Of a DNA stretch of 64,000 nucleotides, positions 10,540-64,000 are shown one piece after another. The notes beneath the pieces are model-generated. The model ran no database searches. It saw only the letters and a program-made list of their open reading frames with translations, and was not told where the DNA came from. Numbering within the stretch: position 1 is the first letter of the stretch; every line of letters begins with the position of its first letter. The position numbers and the translations under genes were made by a program. The stretch is from an uncultured Acidobacteriota bacterium (lineage in GTDB: Bacteria > Acidobacteriota > UBA4820 > DSQY01), in contig CAVRTJ010000003.1 in assembly GCA_963724125.1 (NCBI GenBank), positions 1,107-65,106 of the forward strand. The letters run 5' to 3'.

Positions 10540-10603
10540 GGAGAGCGCGCCGCGTGGCGAATCACCTCGCAAGGATTGGGTGAACACCCACTGGAGGCCA
10601 GAC

Positions 10604-11388: not shown

Positions 11389-11392
<4 letters not shown>
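10604..11392 (+). CDS. tpiA: triose-phosphate isomerase
   Basis: [37 protein letters not shown]. The upstream part of ORF 10343..11392 is treated as non-coding. Confidence 0.9.
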
Positions 11393-13035
<1,643 letters not shown>

Positions 13036-26100: not shown

Positions 26101-26405
26101 TGCGCACCTGGGGCGGCGCGGTAGGCATCGAACCCCACCAGGACCTCGTGGACGGCGGCGGCGTCACCTCGCCTCAGTTCGGGCTCTACGGCTCGAATGG
26201 AAGGTGGCTCATCGAAGGTCACGGCGTCGATCCAGATGTCACGGTCGAGAACATGCCCGCCGACGTGCTGAGGGGCCGCGATCCCCAGCTCGAGGCCGCC
26301 GTCACGTACCTGCTGGAGGAGCTGAAGAAGGCCCCCATGGCCATCCCCGCGCACCCTCCCTACCCCGACAAGGCCCGCCCGCGCGGCTCCGACCAGACCC
26401 GCTGA
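23122..26405 (+). pseudogene. tricorn-like protease (TolB-type beta-propellers + S41 peptidase), two frame changes (~25703 and ~25965-26000)
   Basis: The gene starts with a signal peptide. FSPDG.../WSPDG... propeller repeats fill ORF 23122..25965. SEWPIRYQQWVDGRAAEVAKLSKGTVGYVHLPDM...IDVRYNGGG lies in the frame of ORF 25580. LLINADTGSNGEFFAEAIK...GVDPDV lies in ORF 25962..26405. Confidence 0.85.
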
Positions 26406-26446
26406 GCAGCGTCAATACGCGACGGCCTCAAGGAGGCCGCAACAAA

Positions 26447-26470
26447 GGGGGCGCCACGCGCCCCCTTTTC
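26447..26470 (+). terminator. Rho-independent terminator after the tricorn-like gene
   Basis: GGGGGCGC-CAC-GCGCCCCC hairpin (26447-26465) followed by TTTTC. Confidence 0.6.
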
Positions 26471-26537
26471 GCGCGTGTGCGATTACTCAAAACAGCTTTT
26501 CACAGTGAGGCGATGAGGCGGGGAGAAAAGAAATTTC

Positions 26538-26620
26538 GGAATTGGGATTTTGGATTTGGGATTTGAACTACGGCCGACGGGAGGCCGTTGTAACGGCCGA
26601 TTCCCATCGGAGAAAAGCAG
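26538..26620. repeat. mosaic intergenic repeat (GGGATTT-type heptads + GC hairpin module)
   Basis: ggaattgggattttggatttgggatttga followed by ctacggccgacgggaggccgttgtaacggccgattccc. Its reverse complement aligns with 53765-53838. Confidence 0.65.
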
Positions 26621-42595: not shown

Positions 42596-45500
42596 CTATT
42601 CAGGTTTCCAGGCAGGCACGCGCCCGGGGGTCCAGGGCGATCCGGCGGCGTTCATGGCGTCCTCCAGCTTCTTCAGTTTGACCGTGTAGAGATCGGCCAA
42701 CTGCTTCAGCACCGGCCCGAACTCCTCTGCGGCGATGCGGTACTGATCGCGCTGGGTTTGGGTCGGGGCGGACGTGCAGGACCATTCCCCGTAGACGATG
42801 CCTTGGACCCGTCCCACTATGGACGGCGGGACGGGCTCGTTGTGCGAAGCGACGACCTTGTCGCCCGACAGGGTGCGGTCTATTTCAGTGAGTTCCAGGT
42901 CAATCGCGCGCGCCTGCTGCAGCATGGCCTCGTCCGGATGGGGCGTGTTCTCCAAGGCCTTGTTGATGTAGGCCAGCCGCTCCCTGATCTCGTGCGTCAG
43001 TTTGACGGAGCCCAGCACGGCGCGCTGCAGGCGCTGGGTCTTCCGCTCGAAGGCGAGCAACGCCGCCTTGTCCCCGGCGGGAAGCGTGGCTGTTCCGAGC
43101 GGCGCGGTTTCGAAGGTCCTTGCTTTTCCAAGGGCCGTCAGGGCGCCGTCGTGCCGCTCGTAGAGAGTAACCGTGTAGGTCCCCGGCGCGGCCATGGGGC
43201 CCATGGGCTTGGGTTCCCAGGGATTATATTCATCGTTTTCCTTGATTTCTGTCGGATCGGCCGGCGGGAAACGGAGGTCCCAGGCGACCCTGTGCATCCC
43301 TTTCTTGGCCGGGCTTTCAACGCGACGGACGACGTCGCCTTGCTCGTTCCTGACGATCAGGACGATGGACGGCCCCTGCTCTTCGTCTTCCTTCCGCAGT
43401 TCGCTCCAGGGCGGGTAGAAGGTGTCGCCGCCCTTCTTCTCGATCTTCTTTTCTTCCTTCCGGCGCTTTTCCTTCAGGGTCTCCAGGGAGTCCTTCAGGT
43501 AGTACGTGAAGACCGCGCCGAAGGGCGGGTTGGGCGCCGTGTAGTAGCTGTCGCCCTCGGCGGCCTTACCGGGAAGACCGAGGGGCGTGGAGGGGATGAA
43601 CATCCATGCCTTCTTCACGGGGAAGAGCGCGCCCTTCTCCTGCAGGAGCGCAGGGGTGAGCTCGCGCAGGGGGCTGTAGTCGTCCAGGATGTAAAACCCG
43701 CGGCCGAAGGTGGCAAGCACCAGGTCGTTTTCGCGAGCCTGGATCGCCATGTCGCGGACGGCGATGGTGGGCATGCCGCCCTTGAGCTGCACCCAGTGTT
43801 CGCCTCCGTCGATTGTGAAGTAGACGCCGTACTCGGTGCCCGCAAAGAGCAGCTTCGCGTCCCTGGGGTCCTGGATGAAGCTGTAGACCGTGCCCTTCTT
43901 GGGGAGGTCGCCGGCGATGCTCTTCCAGGTCCGGCCCCGGTCGGTGCTCTTCACGCAGATAGGGCTTGAAATCGCCCATCTTGTGGTTGTCGAAAGCGGC
44001 GTAGACCGTGTCCGCGTCTTCCTTCGAGGCGGCCAGCGCGGACACGTAACTCAGTTCAGGTACCCCGGGAAAACGGTCGACCTTGCGCCAGTGGGCGCCG
44101 TCGTCTTCCGTGACCTGGATCAGCCCGTCGTCGGTGCCGGCATAGAGGAGGCCCTTTTTGAGCGGGGAGGCGGACAGGGAAACGATGGTGCCGTAAAAAG
44201 AGGTCGAGTCGTTCTTCGCGACTGCGTCCACGCCCCACACGCGTCCCATGACCTTGAGCTTGTTGCGGTCCAGCCCCCTCGACAGGTCGGGGCTGATGGC
44301 CTTCCACGAATTCCCCATGTCCCTGCTCTCGAAGAGCCTGTCGGCGCCGAAGTAGAGCGTGGTGTGGGAGAAGGGGCCGATGATCAGGGGCGCGTTCCAG
44401 TTCCAGCGCAGGGGTGCTTCGTCCTTGCCCGCCTTGGGCTGGATGTCCATCATCTGACCCGAAGGCTTGTCGAAGCGGACCAGCCCGCCGTACTGGGATT
44501 CGGAATAGACGACATTCGGGTTCTCGGGGTCCACCTGGCTCCAGAAGCCGTCGCCGCCCACCGTGACGTACCAGTCGGAGTTTACGATACCGCTCGAGGA
44601 GACGGTCTGGGAGGGCCCTCCCAGGGTGTTGTTGTCCTGGGTTCCGCCGTAGACGTGGTAGAAGGGACGGGCGTTATCCACCGCCACGCGGTAGAACTGG
44701 GTAATCGGGAGATTGGCCTTGAAATGCCACGTCCTTCCCCGGTCGTAGGTTTCGTAGAGCCCGCCGTCGCAGCCGGCCAGCAGGTAGCGGGTGTCGTGGG
44801 GATCGACGTAGAGCGCGTGGTTGTCCACGTGCTTCCAGTGCTCGCCCACCCGGCGGAAGGTCTTGCCGCCGTCGTCCGTCACCTGCATCCAGGTATCCAT
44901 GGCGTAGACGCGGTTCACGACCTTCGGGTCGCAGATGATCTCGTTGAAGTACTGCGGGCTGGACGTCATGTAGTCTCCGCGCTTCGTCCAGCTCGCGCCG
45001 CGGTTCGTCGAGCGGAAGAACCCGCCCTTGTCGCCGGCGGCTTCGACCATCGCGTAAACCACGTCGGGGTCCGCGGGGGACACGGCCAGCCCGATCCGTC
45101 CCATGTCTACCTTGGGCAGGCCAGTCGTGAGCTTGGTCCAGTGCGTGCCGCCGTCCGTCGTCTTGTAGATTCCCGAGCCGGGGCCGCCGTCCACCAGGCC
45201 CCAGACGTGGCGCTGGCGCTGGTAGGCGGCCGCGTAGAGAACATCGGGGTTGCGCGGATCCATGGCCACGTCGGTGACGCCCGTGACCTTGTCCACGGTG
45301 AGAACGGCCTTCCAGGTTTTTCCGCCGTCGGTGGTCTTGTAGAGGCCGCGCTGGCCGCCGGCGTTCCACAGCGGTCCCTGGGCCGCGGCGTAAACGACGT
45401 TCGAGTCCTTCGGGTCGACGAGGATCCTGGCGATGTGCTGCGAATCCTTCAAGCCCACGTTCTTCCAGGTGCGACCGTCGTCGTCGGAGCGGTAAATCCC

Positions 45501-45905
45501 GTCGCCGTACCCCACGCTGCGCTGGCTGTTGTTTTCACCGGTCCCCACCCAGATGACGTGCGGGTTGCCGGGATCGATGGTGACGCACCCGATGGAGTAG
45601 GAGCCCTCCTTGTCGAAGACGGGCGTCCAGGTCGTGCCGTCGTTCACCGTACGCCAGACGCCTCCCGAGGCCGCCGCCACAAAATACCGTGCACGGTTGT
45701 GCGGATCGACGGCGATGTCTGAGACACGCCCCGAGGTCAGGGCCGGGCCGATGGACCGCAATTCCAGGCCATCGAAGGTCTTCGCCGACATGGGACCCTG
45801 ATCGACCGTCTTCTTTTCATGGGACACCCGTTCAGCCGCCAATGGGGCGAAGCCAAGGGCGCCGCACATCGCCGCTACCATAAAAATCGACAGAAAACGC
45901 TTCAT
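42596..45905 (-). pseudogene. large secreted BNR/Asp-box (sortilin/VPS10-like) repeat protein, one frame change near 43955
   Basis: ATG 45905 with a signal peptide. There are many SxDxGxTW boxes (SDDDGRTW, TTDGGKTW, TDDGGKTF, TYDRGRTW, SRDMGNSW, TEDDGAHW in ORF 43566..45995; STDRGRTW, TIDGGEHW in ORF 42596..43954). The junction is ...FDNHKMGDFKPYL / KSTDRGRTWKSI. Confidence 0.8.
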
Positions 45906-45972
45906 CGTCTGTCCTCTCCCGGTCGGCGGCAACGACGACGATCGCTGCCGCAGTGCGTCAGAAAAGAGAAAA

Positions 45973-45991
45973 GGCCGCCCGGCGGACGGCC
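45973..45991 (-). terminator. possible terminator after the 46031..46369 gene
   Basis: On the minus strand, GGCCG...CGGCC forms an imperfect hairpin followed by TTTTCTCTTTTC. Confidence 0.4.
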
Positions 45992-46030
45992 TCACAGGTC
46001 ATGGATAAACGGGCGCGCCGAAGCCGGCAT

Positions 46031-49075: not shown

Positions 49076-49414
49076 GGTCGATCGTCGGAAGTCGGAAGTC
49101 GGTCGTCGATGGAAGGGCGAAGACAGCGGACGGCAGGCCGCCAAAGAATCCGTGCCGTGTCGGATGTCCGGTAGGAGCGACCTTCGGGACGCGATCCTCC
49201 GAAGGCTCGGTCACCGTGTCTCTGGGGTGTGCGCCTTGAAGTGCCGTGAGTAGGGGATTCCGTGAGTGGGTGAGTAGGGCGTGTGCAGACCTTCGAAGGC
49301 CCGGCCCCCGCTGTTTCTGTTTTTCATTTAGGCCTTAGGCTTTCGCCCCTGGCCCTTGGGGAACGAGCACTTCTTTTTTTCTTCTTTCAAATCCGAAATC
49401 CCAATTCCCAAATG
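49076..49414. repeat. mosaic intergenic repeat locus
   Basis: Modules present: gtcggaagtcggaagtcggtcgtcgatgg heptads; gtaggagcgaccttcgggacgcgatc (49171-49197); cgtgagt repeats; ccttcgaaggcccggcccc (49288-49309); tttaggccttaggctttcgcccctggcccttgggg; tcaaatccgaaatcccaattcccaaatg (49387-49414). Confidence 0.65.
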
Positions 49415-49419
49415 CCTTC

Positions 49420-51783
49420 TTACTCCACCCCGTGCTCGGTCCTGGCGATGATCTCGTCCTGGAGGGCACGTCGACAGATCGCAGAAGTAGTCGCTGTACC
49501 CTGCCACCCGGACGATCAGGTCGCGGTGGGAGTCGGGATCGGCCTGGGCCGCGCGCAGGGTCTCGGCGCCGACCACGTTGAACTGCACGTGGTGGCCGTC
49601 CATTTTGAAATAGCCGCGCACGAGCCGCGCCAGGTTGTCGATGCCCGCTTCGCCCTCCAGGAGGGAGGGCGTGAACTTCATGTTCAGCAGCGTCCCGCCC
49701 GTCATGACGTGGTCCATCTTCCCCGCCGAGCGCATGACCGCCGTCGGACCCTTCCGGTCCGCCCCCTGCACGGGCGAGATGCCTTCCGAGAGAGGCGCGC
49801 CGGCCCTGCGGCCGTCGGGCGTGGCCCCGGTCATGGTGCCGAAATAGACGTGGCTCGTGGTGGGCAGCATCTCCACCCGGTAGTGGCCGCCCTTGCCGTT
49901 GGGCCGCCCGTCCACGAGGGCGACGAGTTCGTCGAAGACCCGCTTCATGAGGCCGTCCGCGTAGTCGTCGTCGTTGCCGTACCTGTGCGTCTTGTTTAGA
50001 AGGCGTTGCCGCAGGGCTTCGCGGCCTTTGAAGTCGTCGTCCAGGGCCGAGACGAAGGCCGCCATGTCGAGGATCTTCTCGTCGAAGACCATTTGCCTGA
50101 GGGCCGCCAGGCTGTCCGTGATGGTGCCGATGCCCACGAACTGGATGAAGGTGTTGTTGTAGCGCGCACCGCCCGCGTTGTAGTCCCGGCCCTTCTCGAT
50201 GCAGTCGTCGGTCAGCACGGAGAGGAAGGGGGCGGGCATGAGCGCGGCGTACATGCGCTCCACGAGCATGTTGCCCGCGATCTTGATTTCGAGGACGTGG
50301 CGGAGCTGCGCGGCGAAGGCGTCGAACAGGTCGTCGAAGGTCCGGAAACCGGCTGGGTCGCCCGTGCCGGTCCCAGGCGCCTGCCCGTCAGCGGGTCGGT
50401 CCCGTCGTGAAGCGCCAGTTCCAGGATCTTGGGCAGGCTGACGTAGCCCGTGAGGATGTAGGCCTCCTTGCCGAAGGCCCCCGTCTCCACACACCCGCTG
50501 CAGCCGCCCGCGCGTGCGTCCTCCAGGCTCTTGCCCATGCGGACCTGCTCCCGGACCACGGCGTCTGCGTTGAAGATCGGACGGGAACCCATAGCCCATG
50601 CGGACGACCCGGAGGGCGTGCTTGAGAACGCGTCAGGCGTCCTTGCCGAGATCTGCACGTTGTTGCTCGGCTGGACCATGTGCATGGTCTCGATCACGTC
50701 GAGCAGCAGGTGGGAGACCTCGCTGGAGCCGTCGGACCCGTCGGCGAGCAGGCCCGCCAGGTTGATGTTGGCGAAGTCCGTGTAGGTCCCGCTCTCGGCG
50801 GCCGTCACGCCGACCTTGGGCGGCGCCGGGTGGTTGTTGAATTTCACGAAGAAGGCCTCGAGCAGTTCCCTCGCCTTCTCTGCGGTCAGCGAACCCTCCG
50901 CCATGCCCTTCCTGTAGAAGGGCAGGAGGTGCTGGTCCAGGTGCCCGGGGCTGAAGGCGTCCCAGCCGTTGAGTTCGGTGATGACGGCGAGGTGGCAGAA
51001 CCAGTAGGCCTGCAGCGCCTCGTGGAAGTCGCGGGGGGCGCTGGGCCGGCACGCGGCGGCAGACCTCGGCGATCTTCGACAGCTCGCGCCTGCGCTCGGG
51101 ATCCGCGCTCGTCGCCGGCCATCTCTTCGGCGAGGTCCGCATGGCGCTCGCGCGAAGAGGATCGACCGCGTCGCAGGCGATGGCCATGGCCCTGAGTTCC
51201 TCCCGCTTGTCCCAGGCTTCGGGGTCGGCGGCGAAGTCCAGCGCCTCCAAAGCCGCGGCGATGCCGGCCTTGAAATCGTCCAGTCCCGCTCGTAGATCTT
51301 GCCGTCCAGGACGGTGTGCCCCGGGGCGCGCTGTTCCATGAACTCGGTGAAGAGTCCGGCCCCGTAGGCATCGTGCCACTCCGGCGGCAGCTCGGCGAAG
51401 AGCCGGTCGCGCATGGACCGTCCTCTCCAGTAGGGGATGACGGTCTCTTCGTAGGCCCGGATGCAGACCTCGTCTGCGAGGTAGCGCGTCTTGCCACGCG
51501 TGGACAGGATGCGCAGGTCCTCGACGCTGTGGCAGGTCAGTTCGGGATAGGTGGGCACGGCCTTGGGGCGGGGGCCCCGCTCGCCGACGATCAGTTCGTC
51601 CTCACCGATCCAGATGGTCTTTCTTTCGCACAGGTGCCTGAAGCAGAGCGCCCGCATGACGGGGGGCGAGTACCGTCCTTCGTTGGCCCTGTAGAACCCG
51701 GTCACTAGCAGGGCGCGTTCCTCGGAGAGGGTCACCGGGGCCTCCAGGCTCTCGCGGCGCAGGCGTTCGGTTCGCGCATTCAT
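49420..51783 (-). pseudogene. glycyl radical enzyme (PFL2/PflD-like family), at least 6 and probably about 8 frame changes
   Basis: The N-terminus (LVTGFYRANEG...ELIVGERGP...FTEFMEQRAPGHTVLDGKIY) lies in ORF 50212..51783. Segments in other frames: GLDDFKAGIAAALEALDFAADPEAWDKREELRAMAIACDAV, ADPERRRELSKIAEVCRRVPA and PRDFHEALQAYWFCHL. The catalytic-Cys region is GGCSGCVETGAFGKE. The glycyl motif is LIVRVAGYSDYFCDLS. The C-terminus reads ALQDEIIARTEHGVE-stop (TAA 49420-49422) only after a further shift near 49470. Confidence 0.85.
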
Positions 51784-51787
51784 GATT

Positions 51788-52654
51788 TCATCCTCCGACG
51801 AAGACGGCCAGTCCTTCCCGTTTGAAGGGACCGGCCAGCCGCGCGAGGGTTTCTCCCGACGGCGAGGCGGCGCGAAAACCTTCCGCGGAGCGTCCCAGGC
51901 GTGCGGCCTTGTCCCCGCCGAGCGCGTGGTAGGGGAGCAGGTGAACGCGCCGGACGCCGGGCAGGCGCGCGGCGAGAGCCGACACGGCAGCCATTTCGGC
52001 TTCGTTGTCGTTGACGCCCGGCACGACGGGAATCCTCAGCCATATGTTGTCGTGGGCCCGGGCCAGGGCCCCCAGATTGTTGAGAATGGTCTCGTTCGAA
52101 ACCCCGGTCCACCGGAGGTGACACTCCGGCTCTACGGCCTTTACGTCATAGAGAACCAGGTCCGACAGCGCCGCCGCCTCAAGCAGAAGGTCCTGGCCGC
52201 CGAAGCCGCACGTATCCAGGGCCGTGTGAAGGCCCTCCGCGCGGCACGATTCAAGGCATCCGATCAGGAAATCCGGTTGCGCCAGCGGCTCCCCGCCCGA
52301 GAAGGTGACGCCGCCACCGCCCTCGTAGAAATCCCGGTCCTTGAGGACTTCCAGTAGGATCTCCGACACCGTCATCGTCGTCCCGGCGACGGTCCGGGCC
52401 CCGGTTGGGCACGCCTCGGCGCACAGGCCGCACGCCTCGCAGGCCCCCACGCCTCCCGCCGCGCCCGTGGGACACGCCCCTTCGCAGGCCCCGCAGCGGA
52501 TGCATCGCTCACCGGCCACCATGAGCTGCGGCGCGGCCTCCTGGCTCTCGGGGTTGTGGCACCACGCGCAGCGCAGGGGGCAGCCCTTCAGAAACACGGT
52601 GGTCCGGATGCCCGGGCCGTCGTGGACCGAGGACCTCTGGATGTTCAGCACCAT
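51788..52654 (-). CDS. glycyl-radical enzyme activating protein (with two ferredoxin-like clusters)
   Basis: MVLNIQRSSVHDGPGIRTTVFLKGCPLRCAWCHNPE, CIRCGACEGACPTGA, CEACGLCAEACPTGA, FSGGEP. The ORF is intact. ATG 52654 is preferred over the TTG at 52666. Confidence 0.9.
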   Translation of the reverse strand: MVLNIQRSSVHDGPGIRTTVFLKGCPLRCAWCHNPESQEAAPQLMVAGERCIRCGACEGACPTGAAGGVGACEACGLCAEACPTGARTVAGTTMTVSEILLEVLKDRDFYEGGGGVTFSGGEPLAQPDFLIGCLESCRAEGLHTALDTCGFGGQDLLLEAAALSDLVLYDVKAVEPECHLRWTGVSNETILNNLGALARAHDNIWLRIPVVPGVNDNEAEMAAVSALAARLPGVRRVHLLPYHALGGDKAARLGRSAEGFRAASPSGETLARLAGPFKREGLAVFVGG

Positions 52655-52662
52655 GCCTTCGG

Positions 52663-53370
52663 TCAAGCTCCGCGTCCCTCCTCACAGCGGCCGCCGTCGT
52701 GCCCGTTGCGCTTCGCGGCCTCGTAGTACCGCCTGATGAAGGGTTCCTGGACCGCAAAGGACCAGTGGACGTCCCGCAGGGCGTCGGCCGCCCCGTGCGC
52801 ATCGCCCGCCTCCAGCCGCTCGAGCACCGCGTCGTGTTCCAGGACGGATGCCTCCTCCCACGCCTTGACGAAGCCCTTCCTCCGCGGGAAGTCGTAGAGC
52901 CGCTCCTTGAGGAGGCGCACCGTCTCGACGAGGCGCGCGTTGCCGCACCGGTCGAGAAAGGCGTCGTGGAAGGCGAGGTTGTGGTCGTAGTACGCTTCGA
53001 AATCGTCACGGATCAAGGCCTTTTTCATAGCCTCGTTGTGCACCTTCATCCCGTCGAAGACCGCCCCGGACAGGCGTGGCGTGGCCGACAGGACGGCCGT
53101 GGCCTCCAGAGCCCCGACGATCTCGTAAATCGAGCGGATCTCCTCCAGCGAAAGCCCGTTTACGACCACGCCCCGCCGGGGCAGAATGGTCACGAATCCC
53201 TCGTGGGCGAGCTGCAGGAGAGCCTCGCGGAGGGGCGTCCGGCTCGTGCCGAGTTCCGCCGCGAGGCGGTTGACGTCGAGCTGCCGGCCGGCCTCCAGGG
53301 CGCCGCGGTTGAGTTCGGCTTTGAGGTGCTCGTAGACCTGCTGTCTGAGGGACTTGGTATTAAGTGCCAT
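52663..53370 (-). CDS. GntR-family transcriptional regulator (FCD-type C-terminal domain)
   Basis: LAAELGTSRTPLREALLQLAHEGFVTILPRRGVVV followed by a helical FCD-like domain. The ORF is intact. Confidence 0.85.
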   Translation of the reverse strand: MALNTKSLRQQVYEHLKAELNRGALEAGRQLDVNRLAAELGTSRTPLREALLQLAHEGFVTILPRRGVVVNGLSLEEIRSIYEIVGALEATAVLSATPRLSGAVFDGMKVHNEAMKKALIRDDFEAYYDHNLAFHDAFLDRCGNARLVETVRLLKERLYDFPRRKGFVKAWEEASVLEHDAVLERLEAGDAHGAADALRDVHWSFAVQEPFIRRYYEAAKRNGHDGGRCEEGRGA

Positions 53371-53838: not shown

Positions 53839-55478
53839 TATTTCTTCCTCTTGATCATGACCAGGGTGCGGTCGTCGCCGAAGGGCGTACCGGCGGCAAA
53901 GGCGTCGAGCTCCCGAACCAGGGCCGCCGCGGCATCGGCGGGGGACTCCTTCCCTTGCGCGCGAAGAACCTCGGCGAGCCGGTCCTTGCCGAATTCTTCT
54001 TCATCCGGCGAATTGGCTTCGGTGATCCCGTCGGTGTAGATGGTGAGCAGGTCGCCCGGTTCGAGGGTCACCGTCTCCTCGGTGTACTCACCGACGGGCA
54101 TCAGACCGAGCGGCATGCCCGTGGCACCGAGCCATTCCAGTTCGCCCGACGCCCGCACGAGCAGTGGGGGGTTGTGCCCGGCGTTGGCGAAGGTCACCCG
54201 GCCCGAGGCGACGTCGAGCACGGCCAGGAAGGCCGTTGCGTATTTCTCAGGCGTGGTCCGCGCGTACAGGCGGCGCGAAACCCGGTTGAACGTCTCGCCG
54301 GGGCCGAGACCCGTCTCGAGGGGGCCGGCCGAAAGCGACTCCAGCGCCCCCGTCACCAGAGCGGCGGGAAGCCCCTTGCCCGAAACGTCCGCCAGGAAGA
54401 GGATGCACTCCTTTCCGTCGAGGCGCTCGACGGCCTTGTAGAAGTCGCCCGATGTGACGCGCGAAGGTACACTGTCCCCGTACATTTCGTAGCCGGCAAT
54501 CTCGGGGAGGCGGTCCGGCAGGAGAGCGAGCTGGATCCGGCGGGCGAGGGTCACCTCGGCCTCGAGCCGCTTGCGCTCGGAGGCCTCCGCGGCGAGAGCG
54601 ATGTTGCGCAGGCGGAGCGCGGCCACTGAAGCGAGCGACACGAGCAGCTCCATGTCCTCTTCCGTAAATTTTCGAACCGTCGCGTTCGAGCTCAGGGCGA
54701 TCATGCCCAGGGAGCCCTCCGGCCCGAGGAGCGGGGCGGCGACGAGGCTGCGGACGCCCGCACCCAGTATGCTGGCGGCCTCGGCGAAACGCTCGTCCGT
54801 GCGCACGTCGATGGCCAGAGCGGCGAGCCCCTTGCCCGCCACCTCACGGATCAGACTCGTGGAAAGGACGAACTCCGTTCCGCCGGGAACCGCCGACCGG
54901 CTCGCGGCCCTGCGGAACTCGCCTCCGGCGGTCTTGAGGAAAACGGCGCCCTGCTCGGGCTTGAGGTGATTGAAGACGCCGGCGAGCATCTGATCGAGCA
55001 GATCGTCGATGGACTCGGACCGGGCAAGGCTCTGCTGGACGTCGAAGACGAGCTTGAGGCGCTCGGCGTATCGCCTGAGCGCCAGGTCGCCCGCCGCTTC
55101 GCTCTCCGTCGGCACGAACCGGCTCTGGTCCAGGAGTTCCTCGGCCGGGCGGAAGATGGTCCCGTCCACGATACCGCCGCCGCTGGTCGCCGACCTGGCC
55201 TTTTCCTCGATGGCCACCGTGCACCCGCCCATCCGGAGCGACTGGCCCGGCCCGAGGGGCGCGGATGCTTCCAGGCGCCGTCCCTCCAGATAGGTCCCGT
55301 TGCGCGATCCGAGGTCCTCCACAAACCACCGTCCGTCTTCCTGAAAAAGGCGGGCGTGCTCCCGGGAGAGAGAAGGATCGGGCAGGGGCAGGTCCGCCTT
55401 GGAAGACCGCCCGATCACGAGAGCCTCACCTGTCAATTCGTGCTCCAAGAGCTTTCCGTCGGGCGTGATGATGCGCAT
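53838..55478 (-). CDS. FHA-GAF-PP2C (SpoIIE-type) phosphatase, intact paralog
   Basis: ATG 55478 (MRIITPDGKLLEHEL). FHA domain: IGRSSKADLPLPDPSLSREHARL...GSRNGTYLEG. A GAF-like region follows. Then SGDFYKAV...ADVSGKGLPAAL, ANAGHNPPLL, IYTDGITEA, DDRTLVMIKRKK. Confidence 0.85.
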   Translation of the reverse strand: MRIITPDGKLLEHELTGEALVIGRSSKADLPLPDPSLSREHARLFQEDGRWFVEDLGSRNGTYLEGRRLEASAPLGPGQSLRMGGCTVAIEEKARSATSGGGIVDGTIFRPAEELLDQSRFVPTESEAAGDLALRRYAERLKLVFDVQQSLARSESIDDLLDQMLAGVFNHLKPEQGAVFLKTAGGEFRRAASRSAVPGGTEFVLSTSLIREVAGKGLAALAIDVRTDERFAEAASILGAGVRSLVAAPLLGPEGSLGMIALSSNATVRKFTEEDMELLVSLASVAALRLRNIALAAEASERKRLEAEVTLARRIQLALLPDRLPEIAGYEMYGDSVPSRVTSGDFYKAVERLDGKECILFLADVSGKGLPAALVTGALESLSAGPLETGLGPGETFNRVSRRLYARTTPEKYATAFLAVLDVASGRVTFANAGHNPPLLVRASGELEWLGATGMPLGLMPVGEYTEETVTLEPGDLLTIYTDGITEANSPDEEEFGKDRLAEVLRAQGKESPADAAAALVRELDAFAAGTPFGDDRTLVMIKRKK

Positions 55479-55613
55479 GCGGATCACGGTCGGTCCTCCT
55501 AGAGAAATCGGATGCACCTAGCCTCCACGTTGTATCCTAGCACGGCGGGCCGCTGGCGAAGAAGGAAAGAAAGCGAAGGATTCGGTCGGGTCCCGGCCGA
55601 GAAAACGGGGATG

Positions 55614-56384
55614 TCAATCCGTTTCGGCCCTGAACCGCTCGCCCGCGATCACGCCGTACCGCACAACGTCGAGGTCGCCTCCCACGACGTCCTCCCGCGC
55701 GCCGGTCGTGTCCAGAGAAAGCCTCCAGATGTGCAGGCTGGACAGGGTCCCGCGCAGATGCTCCGTCAGATCGTCAAAAACGCCGCTGAGTTCGTAACGG
55801 ACGGCATCCTCATCCCGCTCCCAGAGCGTCACGGAGAGAGCCTGGTTGGGACGCGTCACGCCCTCGACCAGGTAGGCGGCCAGGCAACCCTTGAATGTCA
55901 GGAGCTTCGGGATGATCGTCCGTCTGTAGCGTTCGGCGAGCTCGTCCGCTTGTCCTTCCCTGACAAGCAGCGACACGATGCGAACGTGCAATTGGGGCAG
56001 CGAGGCCGGACCGCCATCGTTCGCCCCCGTACTCGTCACCACTTCGTAAGCCTTCGCCTCGGGGGACTTGAGCGGGACTTCGAGGCCTACCCCAGACTCG
56101 TCCGACAGTACGGCCTTCCATTCGCCCGAAGGGGTGAGAAACGCGCCCGCTTCGTTCATCATGTCGTCGAACAGGTTGCTGTCCTCGTGCTCCTCCAGCG
56201 CCTCCCGCCCTTCCCAAAGGGTCAGGGACAGGCACTCCCCGGACGGGAGGGCCGGCTGGAGAAGCCTCGCCGAGAGACATCCACCCGTCTCGCGAAGCGC
56301 GGGGATAACCCGCGACCGGTACCATTGCGCCAGTTCCTTGAGCTTGTCCTCCCTGACTTTGAGCGGCAAAAATCGCATGTACAT
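55614..56384 (-). CDS. hypothetical protein, two tandem ABM/Dabb-like (ferredoxin-fold) halves
   Basis: Internal duplication: ...LSLTLWEGREALEEHEDSNLFDD... and ...LSVTLWERDEDAVRYELSGVFDD... The function assignment is weak. Confidence 0.5.
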   Translation of the reverse strand: MYMRFLPLKVREDKLKELAQWYRSRVIPALRETGGCLSARLLQPALPSGECLSLTLWEGREALEEHEDSNLFDDMMNEAGAFLTPSGEWKAVLSDESGVGLEVPLKSPEAKAYEVVTSTGANDGGPASLPQLHVRIVSLLVREGQADELAERYRRTIIPKLLTFKGCLAAYLVEGVTRPNQALSVTLWERDEDAVRYELSGVFDDLTEHLRGTLSSLHIWRLSLDTTGAREDVVGGDLDVVRYGVIAGERFRAETD

Positions 56385-56616
56385 GATAGGCCTCTCTACT
56401 TTGACATCCGATTCCTTCGGACGGAGGGGAAGCCTGAAGCCCGGAGAGAACCGCCCGAGTCTCCCTTCTCCCTCGTTCGCGCCCGGTGCCCCGCGCTGCC
56501 CCGCGCAGAAAGAAATCCGTTGAGAAGACCCGGTTGCGTAATCACTTCTGGTAACAACTTGCTACGTCACATTGTTTCCTATCCAATATAGCGACGGTGC
56601 GCGGCGGAGGCAATTA

Positions 56617-56835
56617 GGTGGGAATTTAGGATTTTGGTTCGGGATTGGGGATTTTAAGGACAAAAAGAGGAACTGAGGAAAGAACTTCTCCCTAAGGCTA
56701 AGGGCTAAAGGTACTGCCCATGATATCTCCCCTGCTACGTAACGGTAGCTTTACCTGGCTTCCGACCCGGCGGTAGGCCTTCGAAGGTCGCCTGCCGACC
56801 GTTTAGCCTTTTGGCTTTAGGCCTTGGCCCTTCAC
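56617..56835. repeat. mosaic intergenic repeat locus
   Basis: Modules present: ggtgggaatttaggattttggttcgggattggggattttaagg (56617-56659); cctaaggctaagggctaaagg; ggccttcgaaggtcgcctgcc (56776-56795); tttagccttttggctttaggccttggccc; cttcacttcactcgatcac. Confidence 0.6.
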
Positions 56836-56873
56836 TTCACTCGATCACTAGCAGGCTGCAAGACCACCGATCT

Positions 56874-57347
56874 TCAAAAAAGGAAAGGGACCATCCGTTT
56901 CGTCCGGCGGGCGTAGGCCGGGTACTCGGGGAACTCGCGGAGGAGGCAGCGTTCCTCGCACCCGATCCGCACCAGCGCGCCGACGGTGACCAGCAGCGCG
57001 AGGAGCGCCGTGAGGTGTGACGGCGTCCCGAAGAACGCGGCCCAGACGAAGAGACAGACCGCCGTGTAGATCGGGTGCCGGATGAACCGGTAGGGCCCCG
57101 TCGTGACAAGTCCGCCCTCGGTGGGTTCGGCGCTGAGATGGAAACTCCGGCCCTTGAACGTGACGCGCGCCCACACCATGAGGGCGAACGCGGCGACCTG
57201 CACGGCGATGACCGCCGGGAGGGGGGAGACAATCGTCCGGGTGACGACAAACCCCACCGCGCCCCCGGCCATCAGCGCATACCCGAAGATGGACAACATC
57301 TTCAACATGGTGGAAACCTCGATGAGACGATCCGCCGGACGGCGCAC
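56874..57347 (-). CDS. isoprenylcysteine carboxyl methyltransferase (ICMT/PEMT-like) family membrane protein
   Basis: LVTTGPYRFIRHPIYTAVCLFVWAAFF...EERCLLREFPEYPAYARRTKRMVPF. An alternative start is ATG 57308. Confidence 0.75.
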   Translation of the reverse strand: MRRPADRLIEVSTMLKMLSIFGYALMAGGAVGFVVTRTIVSPLPAVIAVQVAAFALMVWARVTFKGRSFHLSAEPTEGGLVTTGPYRFIRHPIYTAVCLFVWAAFFGTPSHLTALLALLVTVGALVRIGCEERCLLREFPEYPAYARRTKRMVPFLF

Positions 57348-57433
57348 CGCCCCGACGCGCCGCCCCTGGACCAGAAGTCAGCCTAGGTCGGCCCCGTGGT
57401 TGAGTCAAACCTGTGTGCGGGAAAGGGAAGAAA

Positions 57434-57997
57434 TCAGGTCCCGCGGTACCCGCCGCCCTCTTCGGCGGTCCGGATGGCACTCTCCTGCGCCATCATCGAC
57501 CGGGGCAGATACACGGCCATCAAGACGCCTACGACGAAGAATATCAATCCGGCCCCCGGCAGCACTAAAGATTGTCCCATCAGGCCGGGCTCGAGCAGGC
57601 ATTCATCCGGATGGCCCGGCATGTAGTGAACGGTGACGGGCGTCCCCTTCGGGTAGCGGTTGACGATGCGCCGTGCGTGCGACGTACTGCTGGAGCCGTA
57701 GTCCCCGTAAGCAACGCGCGTCCCGTCGTAGGTGGCGCCGTTCACTCTGAACTCGTAGCGGATGCCCGCGTGATAGGTCACCCTGGTGCCCTTGCTCCCG
57801 CTGGTGACGTGGCGTTCGACCGAGGACGCCAGCACCGTGCCGGGGGCCGTGGGCCAGTTCACGCTGGCCCGGGCCTTGAGAAGGCCGCGGATCCCAGTGA
57901 GCATCACGATCGCACCGGCCACCACGAAAATGAGTGGGAAAACCCGCGAGAAGAAGAACCGCATACCCGGCGACATCTGTCTCCTGGACGACGGCAT
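57434..57997 (-). CDS. DUF3592-like membrane protein
   Basis: A TM segment, then WPTAPGTVLASSVERH...YHAGIRYEFRVNGATYDGTRV...GTPVTVHYMPGHPDECLLEPG, then a second TM segment. Confidence 0.6.
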   Translation of the reverse strand: MPSSRRQMSPGMRFFFSRVFPLIFVVAGAIVMLTGIRGLLKARASVNWPTAPGTVLASSVERHVTSGSKGTRVTYHAGIRYEFRVNGATYDGTRVAYGDYGSSSTSHARRIVNRYPKGTPVTVHYMPGHPDECLLEPGLMGQSLVLPGAGLIFFVVGVLMAVYLPRSMMAQESAIRTAEEGGGYRGT

Positions 57998-58194
57998 GAT
58001 CTCACCCCCTGCCGCGCTCGGACGGGGCCGCACGGCCTGGCCCCGCCCTTCGCCGGCACACTGGCAATTCGAAATACGTTGGATGCTCTCTCCCCGGATG
58101 TCGGACCGGCTTCAGGTTCGGGGCCAGTGTATGCTTGCACCGGGCGCGGATCAATCCACGCGAGCGGGCCGCGACGGCGGGTAGCTTGCCGCGC

Positions 58195-59034
58195 CTACTT
58201 TTTCATCTCCTGCTTTTCCGCCATTGAGGAGGGCGAACGGTAGGAGAGTTCGGGGACGTACCACTGGCCCTCGCCTTTGTACTTGCGGGTTATTGCCATG
58301 ATCTCATCCACGAGCTTCATTCCATCTTCCCCTATGGCCTTGTTGAAGGCTTGCATCTCCGTCTCGTAATCGCCGGGGTTCTTGGCGACCGAAATGACCA
58401 CGAAGAGCGGCATCTCTTCTCCGAAGACGACCGAGTAGGCCATCCAGGGGTCCGCGAAGCCCCCCTTGGCCGCGGCGTCGGCCAGCTTCCGGCTGAGGTC
58501 CATGAAGGCCTTTTCCTTGCCCGGCTGCACGTAGAAGTAGTCGTACCAGCGGTATCTGGCCTCGTCGAGCTTGAGCCTGGGCTCCTTGGGATGGTAGGAG
58601 GCCTTGTCGATCCGCATGGCGATGATCCGCTCCATGCACACCAGGGTCTCGGCCATGCGCTTTTCCAGCGCCTCCCACTTCGCCTTGTCCGGTCCCTGGC
58701 CCAGCTTCATCCACGCCTCGTACATGGTGTCCAGGTCGGCCATGTTCTTGGCGGGGGTGACGTAGCTGTAGGTCAGGGAGTTTTCGCTCTTGAAGCCCCA
58801 GAAATCGAACGCCGGGGCATCGAGCTTCTCCTCCTTCATCAGGGCCACCATGTCCAGGGCGCCCGCTTTGTACGCCTTCAGCATGGACGGCTTCACGTGG
58901 TCCATGTAGACCACGACCAGCCCGGGCTCCTTGGCTTCCTCCGTTACTTTGGGTTTTTCCTGAGCCCACAGGGCCAGGGACGACAGTGCGAGCAGTACGC
59001 TCGCGGCGGCGACGAAACCTCTCTTCCACGTCAT
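58195..59034 (-). CDS. secreted hypothetical protein (279 aa)
   Basis: GGGAGGA precedes ATG 59034. Signal peptide MTWKRGFVAAASVLLALSSLALWAQ. The ORF is intact. No family recognised. Confidence 0.6.
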   Translation of the reverse strand: MTWKRGFVAAASVLLALSSLALWAQEKPKVTEEAKEPGLVVVYMDHVKPSMLKAYKAGALDMVALMKEEKLDAPAFDFWGFKSENSLTYSYVTPAKNMADLDTMYEAWMKLGQGPDKAKWEALEKRMAETLVCMERIIAMRIDKASYHPKEPRLKLDEARYRWYDYFYVQPGKEKAFMDLSRKLADAAAKGGFADPWMAYSVVFGEEMPLFVVISVAKNPGDYETEMQAFNKAIGEDGMKLVDEIMAITRKYKGEGQWYVPELSYRSPSSMAEKQEMKK

Positions 59035-59404
59035 GGGGTCCTCCCTCGGGCTTCGCCCGATCGAAACTCTAACTGGTTTAATGCCAATAAGTTAGAGCCT
59101 GGAGGCCCCACCGTCCACCGGCGCACGGCTTAGTCGCGAATGGCCGTGGATTCCGGCCTTTTGTGGAAGATAGAAGAGGCAAGGCGGGGGGAACGGAGAT
59201 TCGGCATGCCCGGGCAACGTGATCAGATGGGAACGGACCGGCGGCGGCTGGCCCGCAGGTTTCCGAGAGGGTTTAAAAGGTTGAGAATGACCGCGGGGAC
59301 CAGGGCACGGCGGAAAGCGACCCCAGAGGCCTGCCCCCAACGTGCTTCATGGCCGGTGCCCCGGCGTGGCCGAGCGCAGGGTGCCGCAGGCACCGGCGCG
59401 ACCG

Positions 59405-59471
<67 letters not shown>

Positions 59472-59482
59472 GCGCACCGCCG

Positions 59483-61102
59483 TCAGCCTTCGAACCCCTC
59501 CGTGACGTACCGGCCGCCGCGGGTTTTCAGCCATTCTTCCTTGGGCACGCTGTGGGCCCGTTCCACGTCCGTCCTGAACACACGGCCCGAGTTGTAGGTG
59601 CAGAAGGGGTAGATGCGTCCATCCGGGGCCGAGTAGTGGATGGTGCAGCGCTTCACGCGGTCCACCTGGAAATTGTAGGCGTCCATGAAGTGCATGGAGG
59701 CGACCAGCAGGAGCCGCCAGTGGTAGCGGCGCTTTTTTGCGATACCCATGATGCGCTTGCCCGAGATGGCGTCGATGGTCTTGGCAAGCTCCAGGAACCG
59801 GAGGCCCTCGGGAGCGCGCTCCGGGCGGAAGGTCTTGAGCAGGATCGAGAAAAACTGGGCGGTGGCGTAGAGCCGCGACGGATGCGCCCCCGTCTTGCGT
59901 CCGAGTTCGTCGATGAGCCTCAAGGTCCGGTCGATCTCGAAAAGTTCGTTCACCGGCACCGAGACCCCCGTCTCCTGGTTCACCAGGAGGAACGCCGATA
60001 CGCCGCAGTCGGGGTGGGAGTTGCAGACCATGGGCAGGAAGCCGTTGGAGTCCTCGCCGAGGACGTTGTCGACGACCCGGGCGAAGGGGGCGGTAATGGA
60101 GAAGGGATACCAGTCCCGGTTGGCCACCAGGAGTCCCGTCTGCCGTTCGATGTCCACGGCCAGGTCGCTGGAGGTGTACCTCCGGGCGACTGAGCTCGGC
60201 CTCGTCCACCCGCCCGTAAAGGCGACGGGCTGGGGCGCCACCCCCACCACGACGTCCAGGTTGCGGATGGCGAAGCGGAGAATGTCCCCAACCTGGTGGT
60301 CGTTGACCCCCTTGACCAGGGTCGGAACCAGAGTCACGCGGATGCCCGCCCGGCGGCAGGCGTCGACGGCCCGGAGCTTCGGGAGCCGAGCCCCTTCACG
60401 CCTCGCGTGGCCTCGTAGATCTCGTCGGTCACGCCGTCGAACTGCAGGTAGATCGCGTTCGATCCCGCGGCGGCGGACTGTTCCGCAAAACCCTCCTCCG
60501 GGGCGAACCGGATGCCGTTGGTGGCGGCCTGGATCATCTTGGCATCGCGCTCCTTCGCCATCCGGCAGGCGTCAAAAAAGTGGGGGGAGAGGGTCGGTTC
60601 GCCGCCCGAGAACTGGATGGCCTGCATCCGCTTGGGGCGCACCGCCAGGGCCCGGTCCATCATGTCGCGGATCTGATCCAGGCCGGGCTCGTAGACGTAT
60701 GGCTGAACGTTGGCGTTGGCGAAGCACACGGGGCACTTCAGGTTGCACCGGTTGGTCAGATCGAGGATGGTCATGCTGGCGTTCGAGAGGTGGCCGGCGC
60801 AGAGACCGCACCCCGAAGGGCAGTTCCCCACCTCCTCGACGGGTGTCGAGGTCACTGGTCGACGCGTCCACCTCGTACCGCTCCATCCTCAGGAAAACCT
60901 CGGCGTTTCCGGCCACGACATCATCGAAGGAACCGTGCTCGGGGCAGCTCTTGCGCATGAGCACCCGTCCGTCCTGCTCGAAAAGCTGTGCGGGAAGCAC
61001 CGACAGGCACTCGGGGCAGAGCGACTCCACCGATCTGGGCAGCCCCAGCGGCATCCTTGGCGTCTCCTTGCAGAAAAACGGCTGCGGCTTCCCTTTTTTC
61101 AC
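59483..61102 (-). pseudogene. COG1964-type radical SAM protein (Tes / GDGT-MAS-like architecture), at least 2 frame changes (~60850, ~60340)
   Basis: GGAGGTGA plus a GTG start at 61102. LCPECLSVLPAQLF...KSCPEHG (ORF 60572..61186). CPSGCGLCAGH...LDLTNRCNLKCPVCFANA...IQFSGGEPT (ORF 60334..60855). TLVPTLVKGVNDHQV...CTIHYSAPDGRIYPFCTYNSG (ORF 59483..60337). Confidence 0.75.
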
Positions 61103-61246
61103 GATTTCACCTCCATGCTGTCCTTCATTTTCAGGCCCGTCACGAGCCCGGATACCATCGTGGTCGCACCTGACCGTTCCCGCCACGCGCCAACCAAATT
61201 CTATGGCGGAGGGGCGGCCCGGCTCAAGGTGCCGACTGCCGGCGAC

Positions 61247-62590
61247 TCAGTTTACAGCCTTCTCCTTCGGGAAGGCGCGCCGGGTGTCGGGACGGTAGCG
61301 GCGGTAGGTCCCGTCCTCGACCTCCCGCCGGACCACGGTCTTGAAGAGATCGGCCATCTTGAGCGCGTGATCGCTGCCCCGGTAAAAGGTATCCCAGGCA
61401 TAGAAGTACATCTCCTGCAGCTTTTCGGGGGTCATGCGTTTGGGCCTGAAGACGACCTTGTCGCAGGTGTAGAGCCGCCAGTCGTTGCTCAGGATCCTGT
61501 CTTGCGCCTCGAGCTGCTCGCGGATGGGGGAGTGCGGGAAGGGCGTCATCACCGTGAACTCCGCCACGTCCAGCTTGATCTCCAGAAGGAAATCCACGAG
61601 CTCTCCTGATGTAGTCTTCGTCCTGTTCGTCCGTCCCGAGGATGACGGTCGCCTCCACCGCGATGCCGTGGTCCTTGAGGCGCCGTATCCGATTGCGGAT
61701 GAAGTCCGAGTTATCGAAGACCGCCTGGTAGACGTAGCAGGCCCCCGCCCGCCCGCCAGGTCCAGGATCTCGTCGTCGTCCAGGATGGGGTGGACACCCA
61801 CTTTTCTTGAGCGGGCCATTGCCGTCAAGAGGTCCACCAGCGACTCCCGGTCCTGGGCCAGGGAGTGTCGACGATGAACATCCGGTTGTTCGGGATGGTC
61901 TCCTTTTCTTCTATGACCTGGGAGTTCGGCCTTGGACAGGAGAGCGCCTCCGACCAGTCGCCCGTCCAGCACAGGAAAGCCGTTGAACTACAGCCCGCGA
62001 GGCATGGACCAGATCGGCATCTCGGTCCCGCGGTCGGTCTCGAGCCCGCGCTTCAGGATCGCCCCAGAGCGCACCGTCGCCAGCGAGGGCGATCTCAGGC
62101 GGGGCGTCCATGTCGTCGTTGAGCCGCTTCGACAGCCAGCCGGGAATACCTCCAGGACCACAACAGAAGCGCCTTCCACCTTGGCCAGGAGGACCAAGTT
62201 CGGCGTGGAGCACGACCTCCTCCGCGTGGAGCATGACGACGATCCCGCCGAGAAGATGACTCGGCACGCCGCTTGCCCTGAACCGGTCCGCGATGGCGAA
62301 GGCACGCGGGAGCTGACTCGTGAGCATGACGCTGAGAGCCACGATGTCGGCACCTTCCGTCGTCCACCTCCTGGAGGTTCTCGTCCATGAAGCTCAACTC
62401 CACCTCTTCGGCACCTCGGCGGCGAAACCGCGGGGCCATGAGGCGGCAGCTGGAGACTCCGTCTGGCGCTCCAGCTTCGGCCGACTCGGGTCAGTCGGCT
62501 CCCGGTCCGATCACGCCGCGTCTACGGTCTGTCGGCCCGCTGACTCGGCCCTCCGAGGCGGGGTGAAGGACGACTCCGCGCTTCTGTCCT
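61247..62590 (-). pseudogene. B12-binding-domain (class B) radical SAM protein, many frame changes
   Basis: Fragments in three frames: RRRGAEEVELSFMDENLQEVDDG; ALSVMLTSQLPRAFAIADRFRASGVP; and the C-terminal VDFLLEIKLDVAEFTVMTPFPHSPIREQLEAQDRILSNDWRLYTCDKVVFRPKRMTPEKLQEMYFYAWDTFY (ORF 61247..61972). The 5' boundary is uncertain. Confidence 0.6.
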
Positions 62591-62605
62591 CTGAATTAAT
62601 CGTAT

Positions 62606-63663
62606 CACAGCGTGGCGCCGGTTAACTCGACGCGCCGCCGCCGACGGCTTCTGCCAATCCAGAACCGAAGGGCGGGCGAGGACCCGGCGGGAGCCGCCGC
62701 TGCCGATCTGGCTGCCCAGGTGACGGCGGCGGGCAGACCGAGAAGGAGGCGGGCGGGCTGAGGGTCGAAGCCACGTCCGCGGCGTCGGCCACCGCACCCA
62801 GCACCTCCCCCACGCCCCGTCTAGAGGCCGACCATAATAGGTGCCCACCACGGCGTAGACGTCCCTGAGGAGCCCCGTAAACGTTACCGGTTGTGGTTCC
62901 GCCGACCTTACATCAGCCCGCCAGAATACTCCCCGAGGAAGTATGCACCCGCGTGGGCCCGCGCCTTTGTCCACGCCAAGCCCACCAAATAGGAGCCGAG
63001 TGCGCGTTGTTGACCCACCCGCTTTGCGTCCGGGGACAGCGCCTCGCCGCGGCGACCCAGCACAACTTGGCCACCGGCCGGTTATCCAGTTCAGGCGCGG
63101 CGCCGTTGAGGCCCTCCACGTGTGTGAGGAGCCCCCGGCAGGTCTGCAATGTAGGCCTGTAAGGGACTCTGGCCGAGGTGCGGTTGGAAGGGATCGTCCA
63201 GCGCGCACAGGAGCCCGCGTTCCCGGCAGTAAGCCACCACCTCGCGGACGTCCCCCCTGAGCGCCTGAAGACGCCGATGGTCCTCTCCGTGATGTCAAGG
63301 ACGTGGACGTGCACCCCTGCTCCATTTCGGGAAAGGCGGCTCCGCCTCCTCGCCCGCGATGACCAGGGCGAGATCCACCCCCGGCTGGTCCAGGAGGCGC
63401 AGCGCGCCTTCTATGGCATTGTCGTCAGTAATGGCCACGAAGCGCATCCCGCGCGCCAGCGCTGCGTCGTAGACGGCCCGGGGCTCGCTGTAGCAGTCGC
63501 GAGGGTGGATGAAGCGGAGGTGCCTCCAGCCTGAATAGCGGGTATGCACGTGCAGTCGGCCAGGGCCTCGGGCAGTGTGCTCCCATGGGCATGGATTGTC
63601 CCACGGGTGAGGACCTGCGCGAAGGACGGCGCACGCGCATCTGCCCCCCTCCGCGTGCGGCAT
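62606..63663 (-). pseudogene. PHP-domain phosphoesterase, many frame changes
   Basis: GRLHVHTRYSG...AVYDAALARGMRFVAITDDNAIEGAL (ORF 63295..63906). VHVHVLDITER (ORF 62913..63314). DHRRLQALRGDVREVVAYCRERGL lies in a third frame. Both boundaries are uncertain. Confidence 0.5.
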
Positions 63664-63835: not shown

Positions 63836-64000
63836 ATGGAGATGGAAGCGACTCTGACCGCCATCACGCCCGGACTTCTTCGGCTGGCCCTAGGCCTGAC
63901 GGGCAACCGCCCCGACGCGGAGGATCTCGTGCAGGAGGCGCTCGCGGCGCTCGTACGGTTCTGGCGGACGAAGGGCCCGCCCGAGTCCCCGGCCGCCTTC
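63836..64000 (+). CDS. ECF-type RNA polymerase sigma-70 family factor, N-terminal part (3' end outside window)
   Basis: ATG 63836. The frame stays open to the window end. MEMEATLTAITPGLLRLALGLTGNRPDAEDLVQEALAALVRFWR is a typical sigma region 2.1-2.2. It is absent from the ORF track because there is no stop in the window. Confidence 0.6.
   Translation, partial: MEMEATLTAITPGLLRLALGLTGNRPDAEDLVQEALAALVRFWRTKGPPESPAAF

Follow-up and report, generated by a model that had tools for sequence, protein, structure and literature searches.

The DNA analysed here is a 64,000-nucleotide (nt) stretch from an uncultured Acidobacteriota bacterium (assembly GCA_963724125.1, contig CAVRTJ010000003.1, positions 1,107 to 65,106), hereafter called the window. 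On its minus strand, three adjacent genes are predicted to encode, in the order of transcription, a PHP phosphoesterase, a class-B (B12-binding) radical S-adenosylmethionine (SAM) enzyme, and a radical SAM enzyme of the tetraether lipid synthase (Tes) family. All three are frame-broken in the assembled sequence. We consider it probable that the organism carries an intact PHP-B12-Tes locus, that the interruptions are technical, and that the Tes protein would couple lipid tails, with the B12-binding enzyme as an accessory and the PHP protein hydrolysing phosphoesters.

Structure of the Locus

In the raw sequence and its listing of open reading frames (ORFs), the minus-strand ORFs are broken from 59483 to ~63600, in contrast to positions 1-59034 of the window, which hold mostly long ORFs. 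The frame breaks were located by frameshift-aware protein-to-DNA alignment against the closest intact homologues. The Tes gene (59483-61102, minus strand) would encode ~540 amino acids (aa) after correction of four frameshifts, with an alternative start Met at 61054. Window positions 61054-59486 aligned with the intact Tes protein of metagenome contig L009 (513 of 524 residues identical) and revealed breaks at 60853, 60385, 60217, and 60193, so that the gene does not form an uninterrupted ORF.

The B12-binding radical SAM gene (61247-62510, minus strand, start approximate) belongs to a family of ~421-aa proteins and is heavily frame-broken. Aligned over 62489-61256 with the intact protein P0121 of contig L013, it shares 311 of 415 residues and contains at least 15 frameshifts. 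The PHP/PHP_C metal-dependent phosphoesterase gene (62625-63590, minus strand, both ends approximate), whose relatives are ~319 aa long, aligned over 63555-62633 with its L013 counterpart (208/309 identical residues, 67%). It has at least nine frameshifts and an in-frame stop at 62915, and one further frameshift is probable near ~63556, as read by eye against the N-termini of the relatives. Below the Tes stop codon, at a distance of 14 nt, is a homopolymer of exactly 60 nt (59409-59468), which reads T on the plus strand and A on the minus strand. The initial annotation, made from the letters of the window, had described three adjacent minus-strand genes at about these positions, each with multiple frame interruptions, and a 60-nt poly(A) at the end of the block. 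The alignments agree with this description of the sequence as given, but the PHP gene begins near 63590 and not at 63663 as first proposed.

Origin of the Frame Interruptions

The window was compared with three short contigs from public metagenomes (L009, L097, and L098), which are independent of one another and 96.5-97.8% identical to it. L009, whose genes are intact, is 96.5% identical to window positions 59464-61898, with 13 gap positions. L097 is 97.8% identical and matches L009 at the Tes frameshift sites. Both contigs span these sites intact and L009 also covers the B12 gene in its 3' part, while the overlap of L098 with Tes is limited to its clean last 200 nt. The substitutions relative to L009 are biased towards third codon positions (14/23 in Tes and 18/27 in the 3' half of the B12 gene). 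Alongside them we counted four indel events in Tes and six in the 3' half of the B12 gene, i.e., approximately one per 3-5 substitutions, and 8 of these 10 indels are deletions. As a control, window positions 54772-59121 (4.35 kb) were compared with L098. This region is 96.9% identical and contains only four gap events. According to the ORF coordinates, none of them interrupts a coding ORF: one pair falls within a spacer and the other pair upstream of probable start codons. Compared with this control region, indels are enriched roughly thirty-fold in the locus at a normal substitution divergence.

Two other conserved genes of the window also have isolated frameshifts. A glycyl-radical (PFL-like) enzyme (49328-51783, minus strand) is split into two overlapping ORFs near 50365-50390, apparently by a 1-nt deletion when read against the usual enzyme sequence. 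In a tricorn-like protease (23122-26566, plus strand) containing PD40 propellers, Tricorn_C1, and PDZ domains, the Peptidase_S41 domain is distributed across two other frames, pointing to at least two frameshifts around 25700-25980.

Given the intact relatives, the third-position bias, the clean control region, and the frameshifts in other genes of the window, we find it quite likely that the frame interruptions stem from the assembly, with indel errors at a background level and a hot spot at this locus. The organism itself very probably carries intact copies of the three genes, as judged from these comparisons. Alternatively, the genes could be real pseudogenes in a strain that lost the Tes pathway, the indels and the expansion of the A tract being true mutations. 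Such decay would account for the concentration of at least 28 frame breaks over ~4 kb, affecting all three adjacent genes while the next 4.35 kb is clean, for the excess of deletions, and for a locus structure that varies by strain (an extra 342-aa gene in L098 and a nuo operon absent from the window). However, the substitution divergence of the locus (96.5-97.8% identity versus 96.9% in the control region) is not raised, its third-position bias persists, and a single in-frame stop was seen. Moreover, the ratio of indels to substitutions is judged to be far above that of natural decay, unrelated conserved genes of the window are affected as well, and close relatives from three samples are intact. 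Taken together, these observations make a loss of the pathway unlikely.

The 60-nt homopolymer is the only run of at least 8 nt in this 63% G+C window and is located where clean sequence gives way to a stretch rich in indels. At this site, L009 and L097 read CCTT-CAAAA-GCTACGG and the window reads CCTT-A60-GCTACGG, with collinear flanks on both sides. L098 has a different 1.4-kb spacer encoding a 342-aa protein (L098 positions 526-1554), followed by the downstream genes of the window. Since this gene, inserted between Tes and a 279-aa gene, is found in L098 (a 97% identical strain) but is absent from the window and from L009 and L097, the structure of the spacer downstream of Tes varies among strains. 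From the aligned sequences, the tract appears to be an expansion of a short A run (A4 in the relatives) within this strain-variable spacer, and its position at the edge of an error-dense stretch favours an artefact.

Two other origins of the tract were considered and rejected. A chimeric join or a transcript tail does not agree with the collinearity of L009 and L097 through the site, or with L098, which joins the 3' end of Tes to the downstream genes of the window. An overwritten 60-column FASTA line does not fit either, as the tract replaces only CAAAA, with a net gain of 55 nt. With regard to the region downstream, the 279-aa gene (58195-59034) has no Pfam or NCBIfam match, and beyond it, 2 kb downstream of Tes, genes encoding a small PEMT/ICMT-family membrane methyltransferase (56874-57347, minus strand) and a DUF3592 protein (57434-58033, minus strand) were found.

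Identity of the Encoded Proteins

The raw Tes fragments matched the Pfam families PF23545 Zn_ribbon_HMPTM (2e-18) and PF04055 (1.6e-16). The frame-corrected protein scored 491.2 bits with the NCBIfam model NF045702 "tetraether lipid synthase Tes", above its equivalog cutoff of 450, and its residues 7-511 aligned with the crystal structure of GDGT-MAS (PDB 7TOL, E 6e-114). In a rough neighbour-joining tree, it falls in an acidobacterial clade inside the Tes family, beside archaeal Tes. The corrected protein carries a rubredoxin-like CX2CX20CX2H motif (CPEC-x20-CPEH), the N-terminal auxiliary cluster's CX3CX2C plus His motif (CPSGCGLCAGH), and the radical SAM CX3CX2C motif (CNLKCPVC). SMHFMDAYNF, RCTIHY, PFCTYN, and HPDCG align, at the sequence level only, with the C-terminal cluster residues of 7TOL. 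All the metal-ligand motifs defined for GDGT-MAS, including the labile methionine of MHFMD and the C-terminal cysteines (PMC9433317), are thus kept. The motifs quoted in the initial annotation (CPEC...CPEHG, CPSGCGLCAGH, LTNRCNLKCPVCFA, and RCTIHYSAPDGRIYPFCTYN) are all present in the translations and persisted under profile search (PF23545, PF04055, and NF045702). Its proposal of a Tes/GDGT-MAS family member is corroborated by the model score, the alignment with 7TOL, and the tree, and on these grounds we assign the gene to the Tes family.

A homologue search with Tes returned 7411 matches, including intact proteins at 97% (P0001), 86% (P0002), and 80% (P0003) identity. Tes orthologues that share 97%, 87%, and 81% of their residues with the window protein have unbroken frames. 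In four loci from Acidobacteriaceae, Terriglobales, and Acidobacteriota metagenome-assembled genomes (MAGs) (L022, L030, L031, and L032), the main Tes gene has, 2-4 kb upstream of it, a second and more divergent Tes-like ORF scoring 332-448 bits with the Tes hidden Markov model.

It could be argued that this Tes homologue does something else, e.g., pterin methylation, as in the former annotation of the family, or a TrsS-like role. Pfam and JGI names still read HMPTM/dihydro-6-hydroxymethylpterin dimethyltransferase, the corrected protein partially matches the TrsS model, and for bacterial Tes homologues lipid coupling is a hypothesis. Nevertheless, the TrsS match (321 bits) fails its cutoff of 490 whereas the Tes equivalog cutoff is passed, and the protein retains the ligands of the lipid cluster, among them the labile Met. 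In addition, MJ0619 was shown to be a lipid synthase, and the earlier pterin assignment was not corroborated by the authors of that study (PMC9433317). We therefore regard another role as very improbable.

The window copy of the B12 gene has lost its CxxxCxxC motif and reads ASRAV!FNGFPV versus ASRGCKFNCFPC in L013 (RGCKFNCFPC). The stitched, frame-broken protein scored 29.2 bits with PF02310, below the cutoff of 32.1, and the intact orthologue P0121 scored 36.2 bits, above it; with PF04055, the intact homologue P0150 passes (30.2 versus a cutoff of 29.5). The presence of both domains in intact homologues supports the earlier proposal of a class-B radical SAM enzyme. Among 5811 matches, the best is an Acidobacteriota MAG protein (75% identity), and proteins from Desulfuromonas, Geobacter, Geoalkalibacter, Syntrophus, and Nitrospirota were found at 60-65% identity. 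No cutoff was reached when the family was compared with the named NCBIfam families TIGR04013 (51-57 bits, the best score, versus 251), TIGR04072 (ladderane-type, 41-48 versus 360), HpnR (37 versus 650), BchE (38 versus 481), and HpnJ. We know of no characterised member of this family; methylation is the commonest chemistry among class-B radical SAM enzymes.

Orthologues of the B12 gene at 61-64% identity are located inside aryl-polyene-like lipid clusters of Geoalkalibacter halelectricus (L014), Desulfuromonas versatilis (L099), and a Nitrospirota MAG (L100). These clusters contain an aromatic ammonia-lyase, ApeP/ApeI-like proteins, LolA, MMPL, ketosynthase pairs, an acyl carrier protein, an LpxL-like acyltransferase, and GT2-DUF2062, together with one or two additional B12-binding radical SAM genes. 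In L015, the B12 gene stands alone.

The raw PHP fragments of the window gave no Pfam match. An intact orthologue in L001, 66% identical to the window, passes both PF13263 (35.6 versus 21.3) and PF02811 (27.3 versus 26.4), and these two domains in intact relatives support the identification as a PHP/PHP_C phosphoesterase. The CehA/McbA domain model gave 68 bits, below its cutoff of 80, and no related solved structure was found by sequence search.

Conservation of the Locus in Relatives

The full PHP-B12-Tes trio is intact in L013 (uncultured Acidobacteriota), in the same order and on the same strand. The same order is found in L101 (uncultured Acidobacteriota), where a C-terminal fragment of the PHP gene lies at the contig edge, and L005 and L009 contain B12-Tes at contig ends. 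In relatives whose Tes is 64-86% identical (L001-L004, L010-L012, and L016), the PHP gene is followed by Tes and then by nuoA-N. The B12 gene is patchy within this clade, as it is present in L005, L013, and L101 (Tes 87%, 81%, and 67% identical to the window, respectively) but absent in L001 (81%) and L010/L011 (72%). L016 also has PHP-Tes without the B12 gene, and no remnants of this gene were found in the PHP-Tes spacer of L001.

To cover more distant relatives, the neighbours within 7 kb were surveyed in 80 species-representative Tes loci. L016, the single close one, is the only locus of this set with a PHP gene. At the ~79 loci with Tes at 47% identity or less, neither the PHP nor the B12 family was detected within 7 kb, with the exception of a weak match 2 kb downstream in L059. 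The PHP-Tes pairing does not extend beyond a single acidobacterial clade, in which Tes is at least 64% identical. The initial annotation had suggested that the block, if functional in relatives, could be a membrane-lipid (tetraether-type) module, and had proposed to test its synteny in related genomes. Synteny is found in L013 and L101, and the occurrence of the B12 family in lipid-type clusters of other phyla also agrees with a lipid module, but it is not a general tetraether module, the PHP-Tes pair being restricted to one clade and the B12 gene patchy.

An adjacency without functional meaning must also be weighed, in which the B12-binding enzyme is a stray aryl-polyene-type paralogue located between PHP and Tes, and PHP a mere neighbour. 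The equally close PHP-Tes loci without the B12 gene (L001 and L010/L011), the solitary B12 gene of L015, the usual context of this family in other phyla, without Tes, and the distant Tes loci lacking either neighbour all speak for it. Yet, the PHP-B12-Tes order recurs in lineages whose Tes is only 67-81% identical to that of the window, an 8-nt gap between B12 and Tes in L101 suggests co-transcription, and the PHP-Tes gaps in L010 and L011 are only 25-48 nt. On balance, a meaningless adjacency is possible but doubtful. In the B12/Tes spacer of the window, a promoter-like hexamer pair, TTGAGC-18-TAGAAT (61198-61227, minus strand), was noted; it is a consensus match only, and its sequence is conserved in L009.

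Several side observations concern the surroundings of the locus. A nuo operon was not found within the window by tblastn, although most relatives have nuo after Tes. In L010 (ENA ERZ25039480 contig_31290), nuoF, nuoG, and nuoH next to Tes are each fragmented, suggesting indel errors in that public assembly. On the other side, the N-terminus of an ECF-type sigma factor (Sigma70_r2; 63845-64000, plus strand) diverges from the PHP gene, at a position where the relatives carry a CCA-adding enzyme (PolyA_pol/HD).

Proposed Function of the Locus

We propose that the 60-nt homopolymer and the frame interruptions, concentrated in a strain-variable stretch that is poorly resolved, are indel errors of the assembly consensus and would not reflect gene decay. 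The Tes homologue would use radical SAM chemistry and its conserved auxiliary [4Fe-4S] clusters to abstract hydrogen from a terminal tail carbon. It would then couple two lipid tails via a cluster-bound intermediate, by analogy yielding membrane-spanning lipids of the iso-diabolic-acid or branched glycerol dialkyl glycerol tetraether (brGDGT) type. This mechanism is taken from GDGT-MAS (PMC9433317) and from the bacterial-homologue hypothesis (PMC8941075); as the initial annotation had mentioned, bacterial Tes homologues are already discussed in the literature as candidates for membrane-spanning or branched tetraether lipid synthesis (PMC8941075, PMC11868695). The B12-binding radical SAM protein would be an accessory enzyme that modifies the alkyl chain. 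This probable role is based on its two independent lipid-related contexts; as a modifier of lipid chains, the protein is a weak candidate. The PHP protein may perform a phosphoester hydrolysis that is tied to Tes in this clade.

Several points weigh against this reading of the locus as a whole. The frameshifts are ascribed to error by sequence comparison, which falls short of the proof that reads would give. The deletion bias (8/10 indels) fits natural pseudogene decay too, no clean homopolymer or platform signature was seen among the indels, about half of which lie in short homopolymers, and the indel density is uneven, being zero in the 700 nt beside the homopolymer and peaking in the B12 gene, a pattern that no simple model fits. 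In L013 and L001, intergenic spacers of 120-350 nt leave room for separate transcription, and the role of the PHP protein is one that we purely infer. Finally, in the literature of 2025-2026, tail coupling by bacterial Tes stands without biochemical confirmation (PMC11868695, PMC13459092).

The stitched frames and the poly(A) are most likely assembly artefacts and should not be interpreted biologically. Through this locus, an already discussed family gains a divergent acidobacterial Tes clade that is uncultured and has two conserved neighbours, and the intact orthologues in L013, L101, and L005 could serve directly as expression constructs.

Branched GDGTs serve widely as temperature and pH proxies. 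To our knowledge, only candidates have been put forward for the enzymes making or decorating them, foremost among these being bacterial Tes homologues. A more daring idea, which we rate as improbable at present, is that the Tes-linked B12-binding enzyme would be a mid-chain modifier of bacterial membrane-spanning lipids, acting for example by C5/C6 methylation or ring formation, with the PHP protein as a clade-specific, phosphate-processing partner of Tes. If this were true, the B12-binding enzyme would underlie the chain modifications behind brGDGT palaeothermometry. C5/C6 methylation of iso-diabolic acid and brGDGTs has been reported in Acidobacteria, with the enzyme not named (PMC13274423).

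Other Genes of the Window

No cobalamin riboswitch, other Rfam family, or tRNA was found in the window. The glycyl-radical enzyme gene is followed by genes encoding a radical SAM activase (51788-52666) and a GntR/FCD regulator (52663-53370). A sugar-catabolism cluster (7136-13035, plus strand) encodes phosphoketolase (XFP), class-I fructose-bisphosphate aldolase, triosephosphate isomerase, and glucose-6-phosphate isomerase; genes for a phosphoglucomutase (562-2352) and a sugar MFS transporter (3620-5023) are located upstream of it. Next to a fused OtsA-OtsB trehalose-6-phosphate synthase/phosphatase (32271-34463, minus strand) is a 634-aa protein that weakly matches a radical SAM domain (30107-32011, minus strand). 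Two BNR/sortilin-repeat ORFs at 42596-45995 (minus strand) overlap by ~390 nt on the same strand and may represent another frameshifted single gene.

Comparison with Known Systems

The window Tes resembles archaeal Tes/GDGT-MAS (MJ0619, PDB 7TOL/7TOM) in its four-domain layout, its end-to-end alignment, and its pass of the equivalog cutoff. It differs from it in that its host is a bacterium of the Acidobacteriota, in which fatty-acid-derived tails would take the place of phytanyl chains as the substrate, and in that the copy is frame-broken as assembled. Among bacteria, the closest demonstrated functional analogue is Mss of Thermotoga and Thermoanaerobacter, which we set apart from Tes by description only. 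Mss is reportedly a protein separate from Tes, a radical SAM enzyme producing membrane-spanning lipids of the diabolic-acid type (Sahonero-Canavesi et al. 2022).

The B12-binding radical SAM proteins of aryl-polyene/ladderane-type clusters (TIGR04072 neighbours) and the archaeal GDGT methylases and GrsA/B share with intact homologues of the window gene an N-terminal B12-binding domain and a radical SAM core; unlike those of the aryl-polyene/ladderane-type clusters, the window gene is linked to Tes. With the PHP-domain metallophosphoesterases (PF02811 and PF13263; CehA/McbA-type), the intact relatives of the PHP protein share the N-terminal HxH motif (LHVHTRYS) and the PHP_C domain, but the protein differs from the CehA/McbA type in scoring under the cutoff of that model.

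Finally, the bacterial Tes homologues proposed for brGDGT synthesis, for example in Ca. Solibacter usitatus and Ca. Koribacter versatilis (Zeng et al. 2022, PMC8941075), have the family, the phylum, and the hypothesis that iso-branched chains are coupled tail to tail in common with the window Tes. The latter is only 43-47% identical to the Terriglobia and Bryobacterales copies and belongs to a separate uncultured clade, which, in contrast to those homologues, has its own conserved neighbours, namely the PHP gene, sometimes the B12-binding radical SAM gene, and usually the nuo operon.

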